Part shown: one piece after another, positions 1-28,715 of the stretch
Numbering within the stretch: position 1 is the stretch's first letter
Layout of the letters: every line of letters begins with the position of its first letter
Assembly (NCBI GenBank): GCA_041663005.1
Contig: JBAZRK010000002.1
Location: 64,740 to 128,739, forward strand
Direction of reading: 5' to 3'
From: Minisyncoccota bacterium
GTDB taxonomy: Bacteria; Patescibacteriota; Minisyncoccia; Phycocordibacterales; UBA9973
Length of the DNA: 64,000 bases
Translations under genes and position numbers: made by a program
The notes under the pieces: model-generated
What the model was told of the DNA's origin: nothing
What the model saw: only the letters and a program-made list of their open reading frames with translations
Databases searched by the model: none

Positions 1-554
1 GCAACTCCGAGTCCGGTGTAATCGGGCGTCGGAATGACACAACCATCAACAGCCGGAAATCCGTGCCCGTTCAGCGCAATCACGGGCTCCGTGTCGAAGT
101 TGCCCTCGACGCAGAGTTGTCCGCCGTCCTTGAAGGTAACCTCGAATGGCGGCGGCGTGCGACCATCGATCGAGGGGAGAGGCCCGGACACAGTGAAATT
201 CAGTGTCCCGGAGAACTCTACCTCGTACGCGGTAACCCCCGGAGGCACGGGCCCGCGGAGAATCTGTGAAGACCATCCGCGACCGGCTTCATCTGGGAGC
301 ACGGTTGCTGAAAGTCCCGGAATCGCGGTCCTTCCCGTTTCCGTGACCCCATACCCGATCATGGTAACCCCGACCGGAACCGGGAACCAGGCGATGAAGT
401 CGATCTTGTAGTTCCCGTTGGCTTCGGGCACTACGGGGACGAGGGTCTTGTACGTGGACGGCGTAGTTACGCGCACTGCGCGTCGCTTCGCCTCTCCCCA
501 AGCGGAGAAAGCGAAGATGGAGCAGAAAAAGAAAACTATGGTTTTTCGGAACAT
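1..554 (-). CDS. Secreted hypothetical protein, C-terminus beyond window edge. Reverse-strand ORF starts with ATG at 554-552 and stays open to position 1
   Basis: Hand translation gives MFRKTIVFFFCSIFAFSAWGEA..., an N-terminal signal-peptide-like hydrophobic stretch. A GAAGGAGGA Shine-Dalgarno sits immediately upstream on the minus strand. It is absent from the ORF track because it runs off the edge. The region is GC-rich, unlike the rest of the window. Confidence 0.45.
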   Translation of the reverse strand, partial: MFRKTIVFFFCSIFAFSAWGEAKRRAVRVTTPSTYKTLVPVVPEANGNYKIDFIAWFPVPVGVTMIGYGVTETGRTAIPGLSATVLPDEAGRGWSSQILRGPVPPGVTAYEVEFSGTLNFTVSGPLPSIDGRTPPPFEVTFKDGGQLCVEGNFDTEPVIALNGHGFPAVDGCVIPTPDYTGLGV

Positions 555-748
555 CGTACTATCCTCCTTCAGGGATTTTAAGCGTTGAACTACGAGAGAG
601 CCTGCAGTGCGTTAGTGGTTGCCCTGGAAACCAGGACACAACAGAAGTCTATTTTGGTGTCAGGGAACAGCGGAACTGGTTAAAAGCGGCTGCTTTTAAC
701 CTTTATTTAATGTTAGCACAAAAATAAAAAAGCAAGTGGAAAAGTTAT

Positions 749-762
749 CCCCCACACCTTTC
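749..762. repeat. Left arm of a perfect 14-bp inverted repeat (CCCCCACACCTTTC) flanking the GIY-YIG gene
   Basis: Its exact reverse complement is at 1064-1077. The adjacent GTTATC/GATAAC motifs are also mutually complementary. Confidence 0.6.
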
Positions 763-802
763 AACATATTGCTTCAGATTGTCAAATTTGTATAATTAAA
801 CT

Positions 803-1057
803 ATGTATTATCTATATATTTTAAAAAGTTTGAAGGACAAAAAGTTATACACAGGTTCGACAGACAATCTGAAGCGGAGACTTTCGGAACACAATAATGG
901 CGTAAATCGCTCGACAAAAGCACGCAGGCCTTTCGAACTACGTTATTATGAAGCTTATTCTAGTGAGCAAGACGCCAGAAAGCGAGAATATTCGCTAAAG
1001 AAAGATGGTAAGGCTCTGGCGCAACTGAAGAGAAGGATTTCCGAAAGTCTAAATTAA
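803..1057 (+). CDS. GIY-YIG nuclease superfamily protein (UPF0213/URI-domain small endonuclease)
   Basis: Motifs YILKS..KKLYTGSTDNLKRRLSEHN.G and Y.E.Y..E..A.KRE..LK match the GIY-YIG family. An extended -10 (TGtATAAT) lies upstream. Confidence 0.85.
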   Translation: MYYLYILKSLKDKKLYTGSTDNLKRRLSEHNNGVNRSTKARRPFELRYYEAYSSEQDARKREYSLKKDGKALAQLKRRISESLN

Positions 1058-1063
1058 TAACCC

Positions 1064-1077
1064 GAAAGGTGTGGGGG
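1064..1077. repeat. Right arm of the inverted repeat (GAAAGGTGTGGGGG), which also forms a local hairpin followed by a T-tract (terminator-like)
   Basis: aggtg...cacct stem followed by gcttttttatt. Confidence 0.55.
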
Positions 1078-1118
1078 TTATCCACCTGCTTTTTTATTGT
1101 TGTGTCAAATTTTCTAAG

Positions 1119-3833
1119 CTAATTTTCCTGGTATGTCGGCTTTTTCTTTATTTCTTGGCAAGGAACTGACGTCCCACCATTCGAGCCCGGACAAGTCCAG
1201 GTCCATTTGTCTGTCTCGTCTGCCCTGATCGTAGCGCTATCTCCTGCCCAGGTACAGAGATAATGTTTTTTGTAACACTGTCCGTTAACTTTTGGCGCAG
1301 GATCGCCACCATTACCACCGCCACAATTATTTGTGACCGTGCATTCACGCTGGAGTCCTTCGGCGTCAAGCTCGGCACAAGGAGGATTGTTGCAGACTCG
1401 TTCCTGTACTCCAACCCCACAAACTGTGTTGGTGCAAGGTCCCCATTCCCAGTCCCCAAGTTGCGGATTTACAGTTCCCTCAGCGCATTTACTACCGTCC
1501 CACTGTGTTCCTCCGACACAATTGGAATATACAGTATTTTGGGTAACCGGCGGCTCCCCATTGTTGTAGAGATAAAATGTTCGATAGTTGTAAGGCACGG
1601 TCACGGACTTAGTACCTGATTGGGAGCTTGGGGTGAGGCTGTTGCTGACAGTAATGTCAGTCATACCAGTGGCAGTGATTTTAGTAGGTATAGCTTGAGG
1701 GTTGGTGATACTCCAAGCAAGATTTACGTTACAACTATTGCCATCTTTTGCAATCGTGCAAGAAGTTGGTGAAGGGGTTAAGGTTCCCGACATAGGATTT
1801 ACCGTTGGCGTGCACTTTGCGCCGTCCCAAACGGTACCACTAACGCAAGTCGCTGGAATGTTGACGCCCGAGCCACTAGGTGAAGTAGGTACAAGAGACT
1901 TAGCATTGTTGTATAGGTAAAATGTTCGAGAGCTGTAAGGTACGGTCACAGACTGAGTACCTGATTGCGAGCTTGGGGTGAGGCTGTTGCTGACGGTAAT
2001 ATCCGGCGTCATACCTGATGCCGTAATCTTGGTTGGGGTAGCTTCGGGGCTGTTGATAGTCCAAGAAAGGTTCGTGGTGCAACTATTTGCATTAACGGCA
2101 ATCTCACACCCTGCCCCAGAAAGTGTTCCATACATCCCAGCCACAGGAGCACATTTAGTATTGTCCCAGGTCGTGCCTGAAACACAAGATGCGGTAGCAG
2201 AGTTACTGCCTAGGACTTTATTGTTGTTATATAAATAAAATATTCGAGAGCTGTAAGGCACGGTCACGGACTTAGTACCTGATTGCGAGCTTGGGGTGAG
2301 GCTGTTGCTGACAGTAATGTCAGTCATACCAGTGGCAGTGATTTTGGTAGGGGTAGCTTCGGGGTTAGTAATGCTCCAGGAAAGGTTAGATGTACAGCTG
2401 CTGCCACCAGAGGCGATGGTGCAGTTTGGCACACTGATTGTCCCTGACATAACCGCGGCACATTTAGTACCATCCCACTCGGTATTCGTATCACAGTAAG
2501 CTTTGGCTGTATCTTGATCAAGAAGGGTTCCGTCATTGTAAAGATAAAATGTTCTCTCGCCGTTGGGTGAGCCACCCTCTACACCATATATTGCGGAACT
2601 GTTGTTGCCCGTACCCACAGTAACATTCGTCGGAGTCGTAACAGCAGAGGTGCCAACAGGATTGGTCGTGGTCCAGTTTAGAGAACTAGTGCAAGTATCA
2701 GCATTGAGGGCAATGGTACAGTCTGTGGCAGTAAGGTTGCCCGACATAGGAGATGGCGGAGGTGGTGGAGGTGGCGATGATGTCTTGTCGATGGCACAGT
2801 TAGCAGTAGTGCCTCCATTAGTGCTTTCGCAATCCCACTTATACTGGGTAGTACTGTCTGCGGTATCCTTAAAGTTTCCCACGTTACAAGTGTTGAGGAC
2901 AAGCGGGTCAGAACACTGACCAGGGGGAGTTACTGCAGGAGCCTTTTGCTCTGAACAAGAAACACTTGTCCCCGCATTACTGCAAGTCCAAGTATACGCC
3001 GCAAGTCCGCTCACATTGTTCGAGCTAACCGCGCTCGCCGGAGAACAGTCGTAGTGGGTGGTAGAACAACTAGGAGGAACTGGAATAGCATTAAATTTAA
3101 AGGTAAAGGCGCAATCTTTCGAAACAGCTCCTGTATTATAGACCGTACTATTCGGAAAAGTAGCACTAGTAGGAGAAAATACACCAGCCGTAGCACAATC
3201 TGAAGGATCCCAAGAAACAAGCGAGGAGGTGGAGTAGCCTGAGGTCGGAGTAACTGTTATCTGAGAAGTGCTTCCGCTTTCAACTTTACTTGGCGAAGGA
3301 GTGCTGACTGATCCCCCCGCATTCGCACTCGCGGTAACGTTGTAAGTAATAGGCGCAGCAGCTATTGTAAGTGTACTAGAAGACCTGATTGCTGTTTTAT
3401 CCAGATTGTCTGTCACTTCAACCTTTACTATGTAGTCTTCAGCTGGAATATTCGAAAAAGTCCTACTGCTCCCTGTAAAATCAGTGCCCAAAGCTGCCGA
3501 CCAACAATCTCCCACAGGTCTAGTATTAGTCTGGTATGTTAATGGAATTGTTTGCCCAACCATTGACGCTGGTCCTGCAGTTATTGTGGCCGTTGCTGAC
3601 ATAGCTGCTATTGTTGGATCAGAATAGGTACCTCCTCCTTCACCGCTCTGTGAGCAAGTTGTCCCAGCTTCAACCGACAGTTGCCCACTAGGAATACTTA
3701 CAGTAATACTATCTCCGCTTACGCTGGCGCTTAAGGTAAACACAAGCGACTTGGCTCCGCCAATTGCACTCGCTTTATAAAAAGGAATAATAACTACTAA
3801 TAATAAGGGAAGGAAAACTAGTAATTTTTTCAT
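1119..3833 (-). CDS. Large secreted, cell-surface repeat protein of 904 aa. It has a signal peptide, four roughly 105-aa Cys-containing tandem repeats, a poly-Pro linker and a Cys-rich C-terminal region
   Basis: N-terminus is MKKLLVFLPLLLVVIIPFYKASA. A repeated unit GMTDITVSNSLTPSSQSGTKSVTVPYSSR.FYLYNN occurs four times, with visible nucleotide-level repeats of about 320 nt. There is a PPPPPPPSP linker. The C-terminus contains W.W..C...CG.G...R.C, a thrombospondin-type-1-like motif. Confidence 0.75.
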   Translation of the reverse strand: MKKLLVFLPLLLVVIIPFYKASAIGGAKSLVFTLSASVSGDSITVSIPSGQLSVEAGTTCSQSGEGGGTYSDPTIAAMSATATITAGPASMVGQTIPLTYQTNTRPVGDCWSAALGTDFTGSSRTFSNIPAEDYIVKVEVTDNLDKTAIRSSSTLTIAAAPITYNVTASANAGGSVSTPSPSKVESGSTSQITVTPTSGYSTSSLVSWDPSDCATAGVFSPTSATFPNSTVYNTGAVSKDCAFTFKFNAIPVPPSCSTTHYDCSPASAVSSNNVSGLAAYTWTCSNAGTSVSCSEQKAPAVTPPGQCSDPLVLNTCNVGNFKDTADSTTQYKWDCESTNGGTTANCAIDKTSSPPPPPPPSPMSGNLTATDCTIALNADTCTSSLNWTTTNPVGTSAVTTPTNVTVGTGNNSSAIYGVEGGSPNGERTFYLYNDGTLLDQDTAKAYCDTNTEWDGTKCAAVMSGTISVPNCTIASGGSSCTSNLSWSITNPEATPTKITATGMTDITVSNSLTPSSQSGTKSVTVPYSSRIFYLYNNNKVLGSNSATASCVSGTTWDNTKCAPVAGMYGTLSGAGCEIAVNANSCTTNLSWTINSPEATPTKITASGMTPDITVSNSLTPSSQSGTQSVTVPYSSRTFYLYNNAKSLVPTSPSGSGVNIPATCVSGTVWDGAKCTPTVNPMSGTLTPSPTSCTIAKDGNSCNVNLAWSITNPQAIPTKITATGMTDITVSNSLTPSSQSGTKSVTVPYNYRTFYLYNNGEPPVTQNTVYSNCVGGTQWDGSKCAEGTVNPQLGDWEWGPCTNTVCGVGVQERVCNNPPCAELDAEGLQRECTVTNNCGGGNGGDPAPKVNGQCYKKHYLCTWAGDSATIRADETDKWTWTCPGSNGGTSVPCQEIKKKPTYQEN

Positions 3834-4028: not shown

Positions 4029-5171
4029 ATGTTAGACCTAAAAACATTCAAATCCGCATTGGAACAGCTAGAAGAAGAGAGAAAAATCCCTCAAGCCAAG
4101 ATACTCGAAGCCATAGAGCAAGCTATGGCCGCCGCTTATAAAAAGGACTACGGCAAGAAGGGCCAAATAATTCGCGCTAAGTTCGACCTTGAAACTGGTA
4201 AAACAGACTTTTACCAGGTAAAAATAGTTGTGGACGACAGCATCGCCATAATGGACCACGACGAAGAAATTCCCGAGGACGACGAAAGAGTGCATTTTAA
4301 TTCCGAACACCACATCCTAATAGATGACGCCAAGAAAATTAAAAAAGGCGCCGAAGTTCACGATGAAATAATTTTCCCGTTGGAAGCCAAGGATGACTAC
4401 GGCCGTATTGCCGCCCAGACTGCCAAGCAGGTTATTGTCCAGAAAATCCGCGAAGCTGAACGCTCCTCCATTATTGACGAATATGGCGGTAAAGAAGGTG
4501 AGGTTGTTTCCGGTGTAGTGCAGAAGGTGGAACGAGGCAACGTATATGTGGACTTCAACAGAGCCACAGGTATTTTGCCTGCCGAAGAACAAATCCCGGG
4601 AGAATACTGGGAACGCGGACGCAGAGTGCGCGCCTATCTCTACAGCGTCGAAGATACTCCAAGAGGCATAAATCTCCGTCTCTCTCGTACACATCCGAAA
4701 TTTTTGGAGCGTTTGTTCGCAATGGAAGCTCCTGAAATAGAGAACGGTATAGTAGAAATTAAGTCCGTGGCCCGCGAAGCCGGCGCCCGTTCTAAAATCG
4801 CCGTCTTCTCGAACGACGAACACATCGACGCCGTCGGTTCTTGTGTGGGGCAGAAAGGTACTCGAGTCAACACCATTACCGCTGAACTGTCTGGAGAAAA
4901 AATTGATATAATCACGTGGTCGGAAGATCCGAAACAGTTAGTTTCGAACGCTCTCTCTCCGGCAAAAGTTATTTCCATAGAAACCAATGACGAAGAACAC
5001 AAGGCTTCGGTAGAAGTGGCAGACGACCAGCTCTCACTCGCGATAGGCAAGGGCGGGCAAAATGTGCGCCTAGCAGCCAAGCTCACCGGCTGGAGAATAG
5101 ACATCAAGGGCGCCGGCGGAGAAGTAGCTTCCACCGATGGTGAGAAAGTTGAGGTAAAAGAAGAAGAATAA
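4029..5171 (+). CDS. nusA: Transcription termination/antitermination factor NusA
   Basis: N-terminal NusA domain, S1 domain and two KH domains (LAIGKGGQNVRLAAKLTGWRIDIK). Short Gram-positive-type form without AR domains. Confidence 0.9.
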   Translation: MLDLKTFKSALEQLEEERKIPQAKILEAIEQAMAAAYKKDYGKKGQIIRAKFDLETGKTDFYQVKIVVDDSIAIMDHDEEIPEDDERVHFNSEHHILIDDAKKIKKGAEVHDEIIFPLEAKDDYGRIAAQTAKQVIVQKIREAERSSIIDEYGGKEGEVVSGVVQKVERGNVYVDFNRATGILPAEEQIPGEYWERGRRVRAYLYSVEDTPRGINLRLSRTHPKFLERLFAMEAPEIENGIVEIKSVAREAGARSKIAVFSNDEHIDAVGSCVGQKGTRVNTITAELSGEKIDIITWSEDPKQLVSNALSPAKVISIETNDEEHKASVEVADDQLSLAIGKGGQNVRLAAKLTGWRIDIKGAGGEVASTDGEKVEVKEEE

Positions 5172-23606: not shown

Positions 23607-23635
23607 ATGATACCATTTTAATTATCCATAGCAAG

Positions 23636-23669
23636 CCCCCACACCTACTTTTTTAAGTAGGTGTGGGGG
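23636..23669. repeat. Perfect 34-bp palindrome (15-bp arms CCCCCACACCTACTT, TTTT loop) flanked by GCAAG/CAAG direct repeats
   Basis: Seen directly. It shares the CCCCCACACCT core with the inverted repeats flanking the GIY-YIG gene. It lies in a divergent promoter region, not a terminator position. Confidence 0.6.
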
Positions 23670-23695
23670 CAAGTATCGTATGATATACTGGTCCT

Positions 23696-28603: not shown

Positions 28604-28715
28604 AAAACAAAGAGTTTAACATTTTAAGGGGTTTTGAGGCTGACGAGCCGAAAACTTCAGGATTTTTTAGACTTCAAAAAATCCGTACCTAAAAATATTA
28701 AACTCTTTGTTTCCC

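Follow-up and report, generated by a model that had tools for sequence, protein, structure and literature searches.

The window analysed here is a 64,000-nt stretch of DNA from a Minisyncoccota bacterium (contig JBAZRK010000002.1, positions 64,740 to 128,739; coordinates below are those of the window unless a locus is named), and close to its left end it carries a very small GIY-YIG nuclease gene enclosed by an inverted repeat. The gene (803-1057, plus strand) encodes an 84-aa, single-domain protein, of which residues 1-71 match Pfam PF01541 (E = 4e-19). The left arm of the repeat, CCCCCACACCTTTC (749-762), consists of a 10-nt core, CCCCCACACC (749-758), followed by TTTC, and the right arm (1064-1077) consists of GAAA followed by GGTGTGGGGG (1068-1077), the core in the opposite orientation. 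The arms are exact reverse complements of each other over 14 nt, in agreement with an initial annotation of the locus. The hexamer GTTATC is present at both ends of the unit, i.e. at 744-749, where it shares the first C of the core, and at 1077-1082, where it runs on as TTATCCACC (1078-1086), a sequence that agrees with the DnaA-box consensus at eight of nine positions. The initial annotation had treated GTTATC/GATAAC as an extension of the inverted repeat, but the two hexamers have the same orientation on the plus strand and constitute a direct repeat. From direct repeat to direct repeat (744-1082), the unit is ~335 bp long.

A putative internal promoter, read from the sequence, is located at 769-796 on the plus strand and consists of TTGCTT (769-774), a 16-nt spacer and TATAAT (791-796). 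The ATG of the gene lies 6 nt downstream of TATAAT, and the position of this -10 box implies that the mRNA would be leaderless or nearly so. The promoter was not listed in a sigma-70 scan of the window, its -35 hexamer matching at three of six positions only, and an Rfam scan of the window returned four tRNAs and nothing at the nuclease element. Compared with its relatives (see below), the window copy is atypical in several respects: the distance from the arm to the ATG is 40 nt rather than the usual ~28, which creates the TTGCTT-16-TATAAT arrangement; 6 nt separate the stop codon from the right arm, whereas in most relatives the arm begins at the stop codon; and the complementarity of the arms is down to 14 nt, compared with ~21 nt in most relatives. 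Relative to most relatives (..CTTCAGATCATATAAT), ~12 extra nt are found between CAGAT and TATAAT (775-790).

The window contains one further member of the same family, which carries no gene. This member, CAAG-CCCCCACACCTACTT-TTTT-AAGTAGGTGTGGGGG-CAAG (23632-23673), forms a perfect hairpin at 23635-23670 (16+4+16) with 4-5-nt direct repeats on either side, folds at -20.5 kcal/mol (z = -9.0) and is located between divergent genes, namely a minus-strand open reading frame (ORF) and metK (23696). The initial annotation had recognized this palindrome and the core sequence in its arms but had placed its limits at 23636-23669. The 11-mer CCCCCACACCT occurs four times in the window compared with 0.35 expected, and none of 100 shuffled sequences reached four; the two occurrences outside the nuclease unit are the arms of this hairpin.

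Public databases contain the exact protein encoded in the window, annotated as a GIY-YIG nuclease family protein and assigned to a metagenome-assembled genome (MAG) of Candidatus Paceibacterota. In total, 347 clusters match it at E <= 1e-5; the best 120 of the 347 are nearly all 84 aa long and share 71-87% identity with it, and the names among the matches listed include Nomurabacteria, Yonathbacteria, Vogelbacteria and other Patescibacteria. Among solved structures, the nearest in sequence are 1zg2 (E = 1e-9), 1ywl (9e-8) and SLX1 (6e-4), and searches of NCBIfam, PHROG and PADLOC gave no assignment beyond weak GIY-YIG matches. Carriage by phages was considered and rejected, as no close relative was found in the viral contigs of IMG/VR (best match, 35% identical). 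A scan of one genome per species yielded 413 coding stretches, from which 80 loci were kept for comparison (designated below by L-numbers). The nuclease ORF is intact in 78 of 79 loci and exactly 84 aa long in 70, residues Y5, Y16, G18, R26, H30, N31 and E62 are essentially invariant in the family, and the median ratio of nonsynonymous to synonymous substitution rates (dN/dS) is 0.12 over 399 pairs with dS below 2. These data indicate that the nuclease gene is under strong purifying selection.

The inverted repeat was examined in the 74 usable, non-redundant loci by requiring an ungapped pairing of at least 14 matching nt with at most two mismatches. Such a repeat brackets the gene in 66 of the 74 loci, with a median length of 21 nt, whereas shuffled upstream sequence gave a median of 8 nt and a maximum of 11 nt. 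Its outer 10 nt, the core CCCCCACACC, are conserved as sequence across the family in the same 66 of 74 loci. In the common layout, a short direct repeat is followed by (A/T)CCCCCACACC, ~11 variable nt ending in TAT, ..CTTCAGATCA, TATAAT, ~7 nt and the ATG; at the other end, the stop codon lies inside the right arm, which closes with GGTGTGGGGG and the direct repeat again. The outer boundaries of the two cores are 307-316 bp apart in most copies (~313 bp), and in 56 of 79 loci the start codon is preceded, at a distance of 5-9 nt, by a TATAAT-like box.

Inside the core, the arms diverge in sequence between elements but remain complementary within each of them. When both arms were anchored on the core and agreement within an element was compared with that between different elements, inner positions 2, 4, 5 and 7 agreed in 94, 68, 91 and 91% of cases within the same element and in 41, 31, 28 and 48% between different elements; past inner position 11, agreement falls to or below the between-element level. 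Proteins that are just 70-75% identical sit between arms as unlike as TATATTTTTAT, TTTCATCTCAT, TGTTTTCTTAT and AATCCCTTTAT, each with its complementarity kept. Since complementarity is retained despite the divergence of the arms, this covariation is evidence that the pairing of the arms, and not only their sequence, is under selection. A stem joining the two ends of the mRNA was considered and judged unlikely, because the conserved -10 box puts the transcription start at the ATG, downstream of the left arm.

A comparison set of related DNA that had not been chosen for the presence of the gene, i.e. 661 kb comprising the 80 closest PilB-orthologous metagenome loci (62-86% PilB identity), was scanned for the core. 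The core 8-mer is not enriched there (14 occurrences compared with ~20 expected), and the only close core pairs in the correct orientation are two bare hairpins in L131. As the 8-mer stands at chance level in these 661 kb, the motif is no general feature of these genomes and goes instead with the nuclease gene; a generic genomic signal, such as an uptake-like sequence or a general terminator, was rejected for the same reason.

Several lines of evidence bear on whether the units have moved. Of the 60 innermost core pairs, 83% have direct repeats of 4 nt or more immediately next to the core, compared with 11% when left flanks were paired with the right flanks of other elements, and the sequences of these repeats vary by site (TCAAA, TATGA, TTGAC, GTTTT, CAAG, TTTA, TAGAC and others). 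In L005 and L011, a core-to-core hairpin unit of 27-28 bp interrupts the conserved CAGATCATATAAT of the element's own promoter and is flanked by TCATA on both sides, and in L003 a degenerate hairpin lies two bases further on in the promoter, with TATA on both sides; CAGATCATATAAT is uninterrupted in ~60 other copies. A homologous flanking ORF within 3 kb is common to only 92 of 3321 locus pairs, very few of which have one on both sides, and no second gene consistently linked within 3 kb was seen. The nuclease gene was also absent from the corresponding place in all 80 pilB-orthologous loci. Some MAGs carry two or three copies. Taken together, the flanking duplications, nested insertions and non-syntenic positions show that the units have moved. 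The prospect raised in the initial annotation as fatal to a mobile unit, namely a repeat found only at this locus and a gene that is syntenic without repeats in relatives, is clearly not what the relatives display, and the comparison of copy number and flanks that it had proposed gave a result in favour of mobility.

Further core palindromes, for which the initial annotation had also suggested a search, were found both in the window and in relatives. Gene-less units with the same ends, 27-135 bp in length, were identified in L003, L035, L056, L070, L075, L079, L131 and the window. In L003 (2160-2289), L035 (573-672), L075 and L079, the ends enclose non-coding stretches of 60-135 nt, and bare hairpins with the family ends occur in the window, L038 and L131. 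In L056, three gene-less units follow the gene in a row, and their inner arm sequence is the same as that of the gene-carrying unit. A tandem array of gene-less units with a 138-bp period is present in L069 and L070; these two loci are orthologous, and just upstream of the nuclease element L069 (2819-3270) has two and L070 (1523-2112) has three of the head-to-tail 138-bp units. In single-stranded DNA (ssDNA), predicted folds of the units strongly favour arm pairing (z from -5.5 to -9). The two units of L131 (10729-10771 and 11252-11294) are 45-nt CCCCCACACC hairpins with TTTA direct repeats, and both are situated in-frame in the part of type IV pilin-like genes that encodes the leader peptide; the second of them reads MKTQNKKGF-TPTPNFIKKRNLVWGF-SIIEIM. 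The Gly-Phe motif at which prepilin is cleaved is duplicated by each of these insertions, and the mature pilin would thus be the same as without them.

At many right ends, the direct repeat is followed by a partial third core, e.g. GTAAGCC-CCCAC, and in L068 the repeated stretch reaches 17 nt. The flank beside the core reads TGTGGATAA(C) or (G)TTATCCACA, the DnaA-box consensus, in at least 17 loci and on either side of the gene (L002, L003, L005-L008, L010-L013, L019, L021, L022, L032, L039, L040 and L046); this flank may be a preferred target or may be the product of a direct repeat joined to a partial core. Insertion beside core-like sequences would account in part for both the third cores and the DnaA-box-like flanks. 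'Inside-out' palindromes of the form GGTGTGGGGG-N4-CCCCCACACC, with the third core, partial or complete, in the left-arm orientation, were observed in L068 (2535-2560), L064, L065, L061, L048 (3263-3320) and L017 (3270-3410), and these look like the junction of a circle or like the ends of tandem copies that meet. Eight elements directly adjoin a tRNA gene at its 3' end (L029, L036, L041, L047, L049, L050, L065 and L067; junctions near 2950-2960 or 3270-3290); their core variant is mostly CACCCACACC, and the beginning of the arm is similar to the tRNA end (..GGCACCC).

The host site of the window copy could be reconstructed. An outer inverted repeat surrounds the unit (717-743/1078-1104; 27 nt, 89%), within which CACAAAAATAAAAAAGCAAGTGG (717-739) pairs with CCACCTGCTTTTTTATTGTTGTG (1082-1104). 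When the flanks are rejoined with a single GTTATC, they read AAAAAAGCAAGTGG-AAAAGTTAT-CCACCTGCTTTTTT, a strong hairpin with an A tract and a T tract that folds at -19.1 kcal/mol (z = -5.2) and has the direct repeat in its loop. This split hairpin is located just past the stop codon (1119) of a minus-strand 904-aa ORF (1119-3833). The outer repeat looks like a bidirectional terminator hairpin of the host, in the loop of which the unit sits, and the long (~35-46 nt) inverted repeat of this locus is a composite of the element's own arms and the split host hairpin. In the ssDNA fold of 712-1108, both stem layers close the gene (-72.3 kcal/mol, compared with -36.6 ± 4 for shuffled sequence; z = -8.9). 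A general preference for hairpin loops was rejected, because the reconstructed targets have a median z of -0.15 and only 18% of them, the window site included, fall below -2. The predicted empty-site junction is AAAAAAGCAAGTGGAAAAGTTATCCACCTGCTTTTTT.

A terminator scan detected a terminator-like hairpin on the plus strand, GTGGGGGTTATCCAC followed by CTGCTTTTTT (1071-1094; hairpin, 1071-1085), and a mirror site on the minus strand at 755-736. The initial annotation, which had the right arm double as a terminator hairpin, was thus partly right: a hairpin followed by a T run is present, in which the arm contributes its G run and the flank contributes CCAC.

On balance, we think it likely that this region is one copy of a very small element made up of a nuclease gene and palindromic repeats, that the family is widespread in Candidatus Paceibacterota of the candidate phyla radiation (CPR), and that its members have been moved by the nuclease acting on the arms. 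The element is probably a minimal one of insertion sequence (IS)-like type. The initial annotation had read the locus as a compact mobile cassette or as a family of repeats that accompanies a nuclease, and the 66 of 74 loci with bracketing repeats, the non-synteny, the excess of direct repeats (83% versus 11%) and the gene-less and nested units bear this out. In the mechanism that we infer, the two arms would pair in ssDNA or in an extruded cruciform, and the nuclease would recognize the conserved base of the stem and cut at its foot, as Ssn nucleases (to which SsnA of Neisseria meningitidis, discussed below, belongs) cut beside hairpin repeats. Such cuts, combined with staggered breaks at new sites, would allow gene-carrying and gene-less units to be excised, inserted or copied. 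Insertion would often occur beside core-like sequences, host repair would fill the stagger of 4-7 nt, and each event would leave a duplication of 4-7 nt.

A number of observations weigh against this interpretation. Hairpin-directed ssDNA transposition of the IS200/IS605 type leaves no target duplication, unlike the units described here, and the duplications argue against a pure 'peel and paste' mechanism of that type. We know of no GIY-YIG enzyme that acts as a transposase, and the 84-aa protein has no obvious strand-transfer activity. Only two family members are present in the 64-kb window, and copies within one genome share 79-89% DNA identity, with no sign of recent transposition or of a burst. 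No empty-site allele of the gene-carrying unit was found among the 80 pilB-orthologous loci or in a search made with the 904-aa neighbour: the nuclease gene is absent at the corresponding place in those 80 loci, but so is the 217-aa neighbour, and none of them exceeds 86% identity in PilB, while the 904-aa protein is not on record and gave no comparison contigs. Of the empty sites that the initial annotation had recommended seeking, those of the nested hairpin units were found, in the form of the uninterrupted promoter of ~60 copies, and none was found for the gene-carrying unit. Since the core begins with C and has G as its last nucleotide, the direct repeats can be delimited only to within 4-7 nt, and the partial third cores and DnaA-box-like TGTGGATAA flanks fit the model only loosely.

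A bolder proposition, to which we give rather less credence, is that the 84-aa nuclease itself mobilizes a new class of minimal IS, characterized by a length of ~320-335 bp, a 21-nt stem-forming inverted repeat, a 4-7-bp duplication and its own derivatives resembling MITEs (miniature transposable elements with inverted repeats), and restricted to or centred on the CPR. If true, no autonomous transposable element known would be smaller, and none before it would have a GIY-YIG enzyme as its transposase.

Among the other explanations, the one that survives best is a domesticated, Ssn-like host system, in which the nuclease cuts ssDNA at a hairpin motif, e.g. in incoming transforming DNA or at replication forks, and the repeats are recognition sites that spread long ago and are now retained for a host function. 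Exactly such a role is played in Neisseria by SsnA, the gene of which has repeats to its left and right, and the strong purifying selection and the old, diverged state of the paralogous copies (79-89% DNA identity) also speak for this explanation. Genes for type IV pili or pilins also lie near the elements in the window, L077 and L131, as pilC does near Neisseria ssnA. The copy number of the motif is, however, very low (two units in 64 kb, and no enrichment in related DNA), whereas Neisseria has hundreds of the corresponding repeats, and the flanking duplications, nested insertions and non-syntenic positions speak for movement. We consider this explanation unlikely as a whole; it concerns present function, is compatible with a mobile origin and is a serious alternative for what the nuclease does today.

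It is improbable, in our view, that the units are MITE-like sequences moved by an unlinked transposase, with the GIY-YIG gene as a captured passenger. DDE transposons and their MITEs are classically recognized by terminal inverted repeats and short target duplications, and in some loci (e.g. L056 and L070) the units without a gene equal or outnumber those with one. The GIY-YIG gene is nevertheless the sole ORF ever found between the ends, in a fixed geometry (~313 bp) across dozens of genomes, its stop codon lying inside the right arm and the spacing between the left arm and the -10 box being constant. Moreover, paired cores were seen only where the nuclease gene is present, and no second gene is consistently found within 3 kb.

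Still less probable is a free-standing homing endonuclease gene lodged in the centre of its own palindromic site, with bare hairpins such as that at 23635-23670 as unoccupied targets. GIY-YIG is a classical homing-endonuclease fold, and insertion of a gene into the centre of a palindrome would produce inverted half-sites to its left and right; the bare hairpins share the core. Yet the 84-aa protein is almost entirely catalytic domain and has no DNA-binding domain, the bare hairpins have the character of insertions in their own right, with duplicated targets, and non-coding cargos of 60-130 nt occupy the same position as the gene; furthermore, the inner arm of the bare hairpin in the window is ACTT, whereas that of the gene-carrying unit is TTC. 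The initial annotation's term 'homing-type' for the nuclease is accordingly not borne out, the protein having no such domain and no intron or intein context. That an ordinary conserved gene simply has the repeats as its operator, near the promoter, and as its terminator hairpin, as the overlap of the left arm with the -35 region and the contribution of the right arm to the hairpin at 1071-1085 might suggest, is very improbable, given that the same pair of repeats bounds non-coding units and bare hairpins, that the arms covary over 21 nt, that direct repeats flank the units, that the gene is not syntenic and that, if the mRNA starts at the ATG, the left arm would not be transcribed from the element's own promoter and could form no RNA stem.

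With regard to the surroundings of the element, the 904-aa ORF that adjoins it (1119-3833, minus strand) is Cys-rich, contains several long internal DNA repeats of ~340 nt, e.g. the recurring TTGTTGTAGAGATAAAATGTTCGA..GGCACGGTCACGGACTTAGTACCTGATTG, and probably encodes a repeat-domain surface protein. The plus-strand ORF at 4029-5171 has homologues within ~3 kb of the nuclease gene, on either side of it, in six loci (the window, L003, L006, L009, L016 and L034); its N-terminus is 72-91% identical in four of the five other loci and 53% identical in L034. This family, the only recurrent neighbour seen, may be a housekeeping gene of translation-factor type. The window copy also adjoins type IV pilus genes (T2SSE/PilB and T2SSF; window 1-1100 together with L001). 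In L077, two nuclease elements (365-619 and 2739-2993) are located around a cluster of three pilin-like genes, and the Neisseria ssnA gene (L083) adjoins pilC, which encodes a PilY1 domain; a link between these elements and pili or DNA uptake is possible. Elsewhere in the window (28605-28712), a 25-nt inverted repeat (92% complementary, 58-nt spacer) lies between convergent ORFs, and its sequence is unrelated to the CCCCCACACC family.

The family matters beyond this locus in several ways. The report on the Ssn nucleases showed that hairpin repeats accompany small GIY-YIG nucleases and left open whether a unit of gene plus repeats is, or was, a transposon (PMC11893778), and the Paceibacterota family offers a much cleaner anatomy, with one gene, one pair of arms, a sharp 10-nt terminal core, duplications, gene-less derivatives and nesting. 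This anatomy makes the question of whether a lone GIY-YIG nuclease can serve as a transposase directly testable with a ~335-bp substrate and an 84-residue protein. If the nuclease moves the unit, it would represent a new class of transposase, and autonomous mobile DNA would have a new minimum size; if not, the family would still provide a new pair of nuclease and recognition hairpin, with the core CCCCCACACC, within a group of enzymes that is being developed as site-specific ssDNA-cutting tools. The units would also be among the few recognizable families of mobile elements in the streamlined CPR genomes. For annotation, they account for many of the 'perfect palindromes' and terminator-like hairpins in Paceibacterota intergenic regions.

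The integron core-site consensus is GTTRRRY. An integron cassette with an attC site was rejected, as GTTATC does not fit this consensus, the palindrome is split around the ORF rather than located 3' of it, and no integrase was seen. Free-standing GIY-YIG homing endonucleases (I-TevI and Seg) share the catalytic fold and are likewise selfish genes between host genes, but at 200-250 aa they include a DNA-binding domain as well as a long linker, and they lack terminal inverted repeats, duplicated targets and derivatives without the gene. By sequence, the solved structures closest to the window protein are those of UPF0213 (YhbQ/BH0048/EF2693) and SLX1. The genes for UPF0213 are single-copy and of housekeeping type, with no flanking repeats reported, whereas SLX1 cuts branched and cruciform-like DNA, which fits the model of cleavage at the foot of the stem, but requires a RING domain and SLX4.

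As in MITEs (e.g. the Correia elements of Neisseria), the units are ~30-150 bp long in their gene-less form, have terminal inverted repeats and short flanking duplications, are intergenic, are at times nested or in tandem, and at times provide promoter or terminator signals. MITEs encode nothing and need a DDE transposase with matching ends, whereas the present family has a gene-carrying member, the product of which is a GIY-YIG protein only. Two hallmarks of an IS are present, i.e. terminal inverted repeats (arms of ~21 nt with a conserved 10-nt terminal core) and target-site duplication (83% versus 11%, and TCATA around the nested unit versus ~60 uninterrupted sites). A recognized transposase class is not: the sole ORF encodes a GIY-YIG nuclease and not a protein of the DDE, HUH/Y1, tyrosine, serine or Cas1 type, and neither near-identical copies nor presence/absence polymorphism was found for the gene-carrying unit.

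A further parallel is provided by RAYT/REP-REPIN systems, in which genes for REP-associated tyrosine transposases (RAYTs) occur with repetitive extragenic palindromes (REPs). In both cases, one small nuclease gene lies between oppositely oriented copies of a short palindrome, copies of the repeat without the gene are scattered singly and in pairs, and the stems vary and yet stay complementary. RAYT is, however, an HUH/Y1 enzyme of IS200/IS605-like type, whereas only GIY-YIG-type domains were detected by Pfam in the present family; REP elements and IS200/IS605 insert without target duplication, whereas duplications were seen here. Each REP is its own hairpin with a conserved GTAG foot, and REPs usually number hundreds per genome.

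In the literature on GIY-YIG proteins with inverted repeats, target duplications, MITEs or CPR names, the only relevant report found was that on the Ssn nucleases (Chenal et al. 2025, Nat Commun, PMC11893778), in which CPR bacteria are not mentioned; Ssn/SRM is the nearest known system to the element. SsnA (NMV_0044/NMB0047) of N. meningitidis is a 94-aa, single-domain GIY-YIG protein (cd10448) that binds the hairpin repeat NTS only as ssDNA and cuts just upstream of it, and NTS copies flank its own gene; a repeat conforming to the degenerate SRM motif lies near 71% of SsnA homologues and on both sides of 42%, and the authors liken NTS-ssnA-NTS to an IS and draw a parallel with RAYT/REP (PMC11893778). 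We retrieved SsnA (P0125; 94 aa), the identity of which was confirmed, and its N. meningitidis locus, which has 13 NTS copies in 3.3 kb. The window protein and SsnA are detectably homologous (BLASTP, 32% identity, E = 6e-9; HHalign, 97% probability, E = 7e-11), both are small single-domain GIY-YIG proteins (84 and 94 aa), and each gene has a palindromic repeat of its own to its left and right, in complete hairpins in Neisseria and in single arms in the present family, that recurs elsewhere in the genome. Scored with a profile of the present family, Ssn members reach 27-45 bits (median 34) and the UPF0213 structures BH0048 and EF2693 reach 36-42 bits; scored with the Ssn profile, the present family reaches 20-37 bits (median 27) and UPF0213 reaches 7-12 bits. 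By these profile scores, the family would be placed about midway between Ssn and UPF0213 and equally far from both.

The W-rich C-terminal segment of Ssn, KKWNRxWK..NPxWxDLW, is absent from the present family, and the SRM consensus HGTCWYN(0-2)YYVSBRHN(0-5)WNVSBRGN(0-2)RNCYNB, which has eight matches in the Neisseria ssnA locus (L083), has none in the 64-kb window and none in the 74 loci. In Neisseria, arrays of complete hairpins are located on each side of ssnA, whereas the present gene has, on each side, half of one long-range stem; repeats flank it left and right in 66 of 74 loci, and hairpins that are complete in themselves are confined to the gene-less units. The present family also has target-like duplications and units that share its ends but lack the gene, neither of which is reported for Ssn, and the hosts differ, i.e. 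CPR bacteria for the former and Neisseria for SsnA. By analogy, and without claiming membership of the Ssn family as defined, we suggest that the Paceibacterota family works like an Ssn/SRM or a RAYT/REP module.

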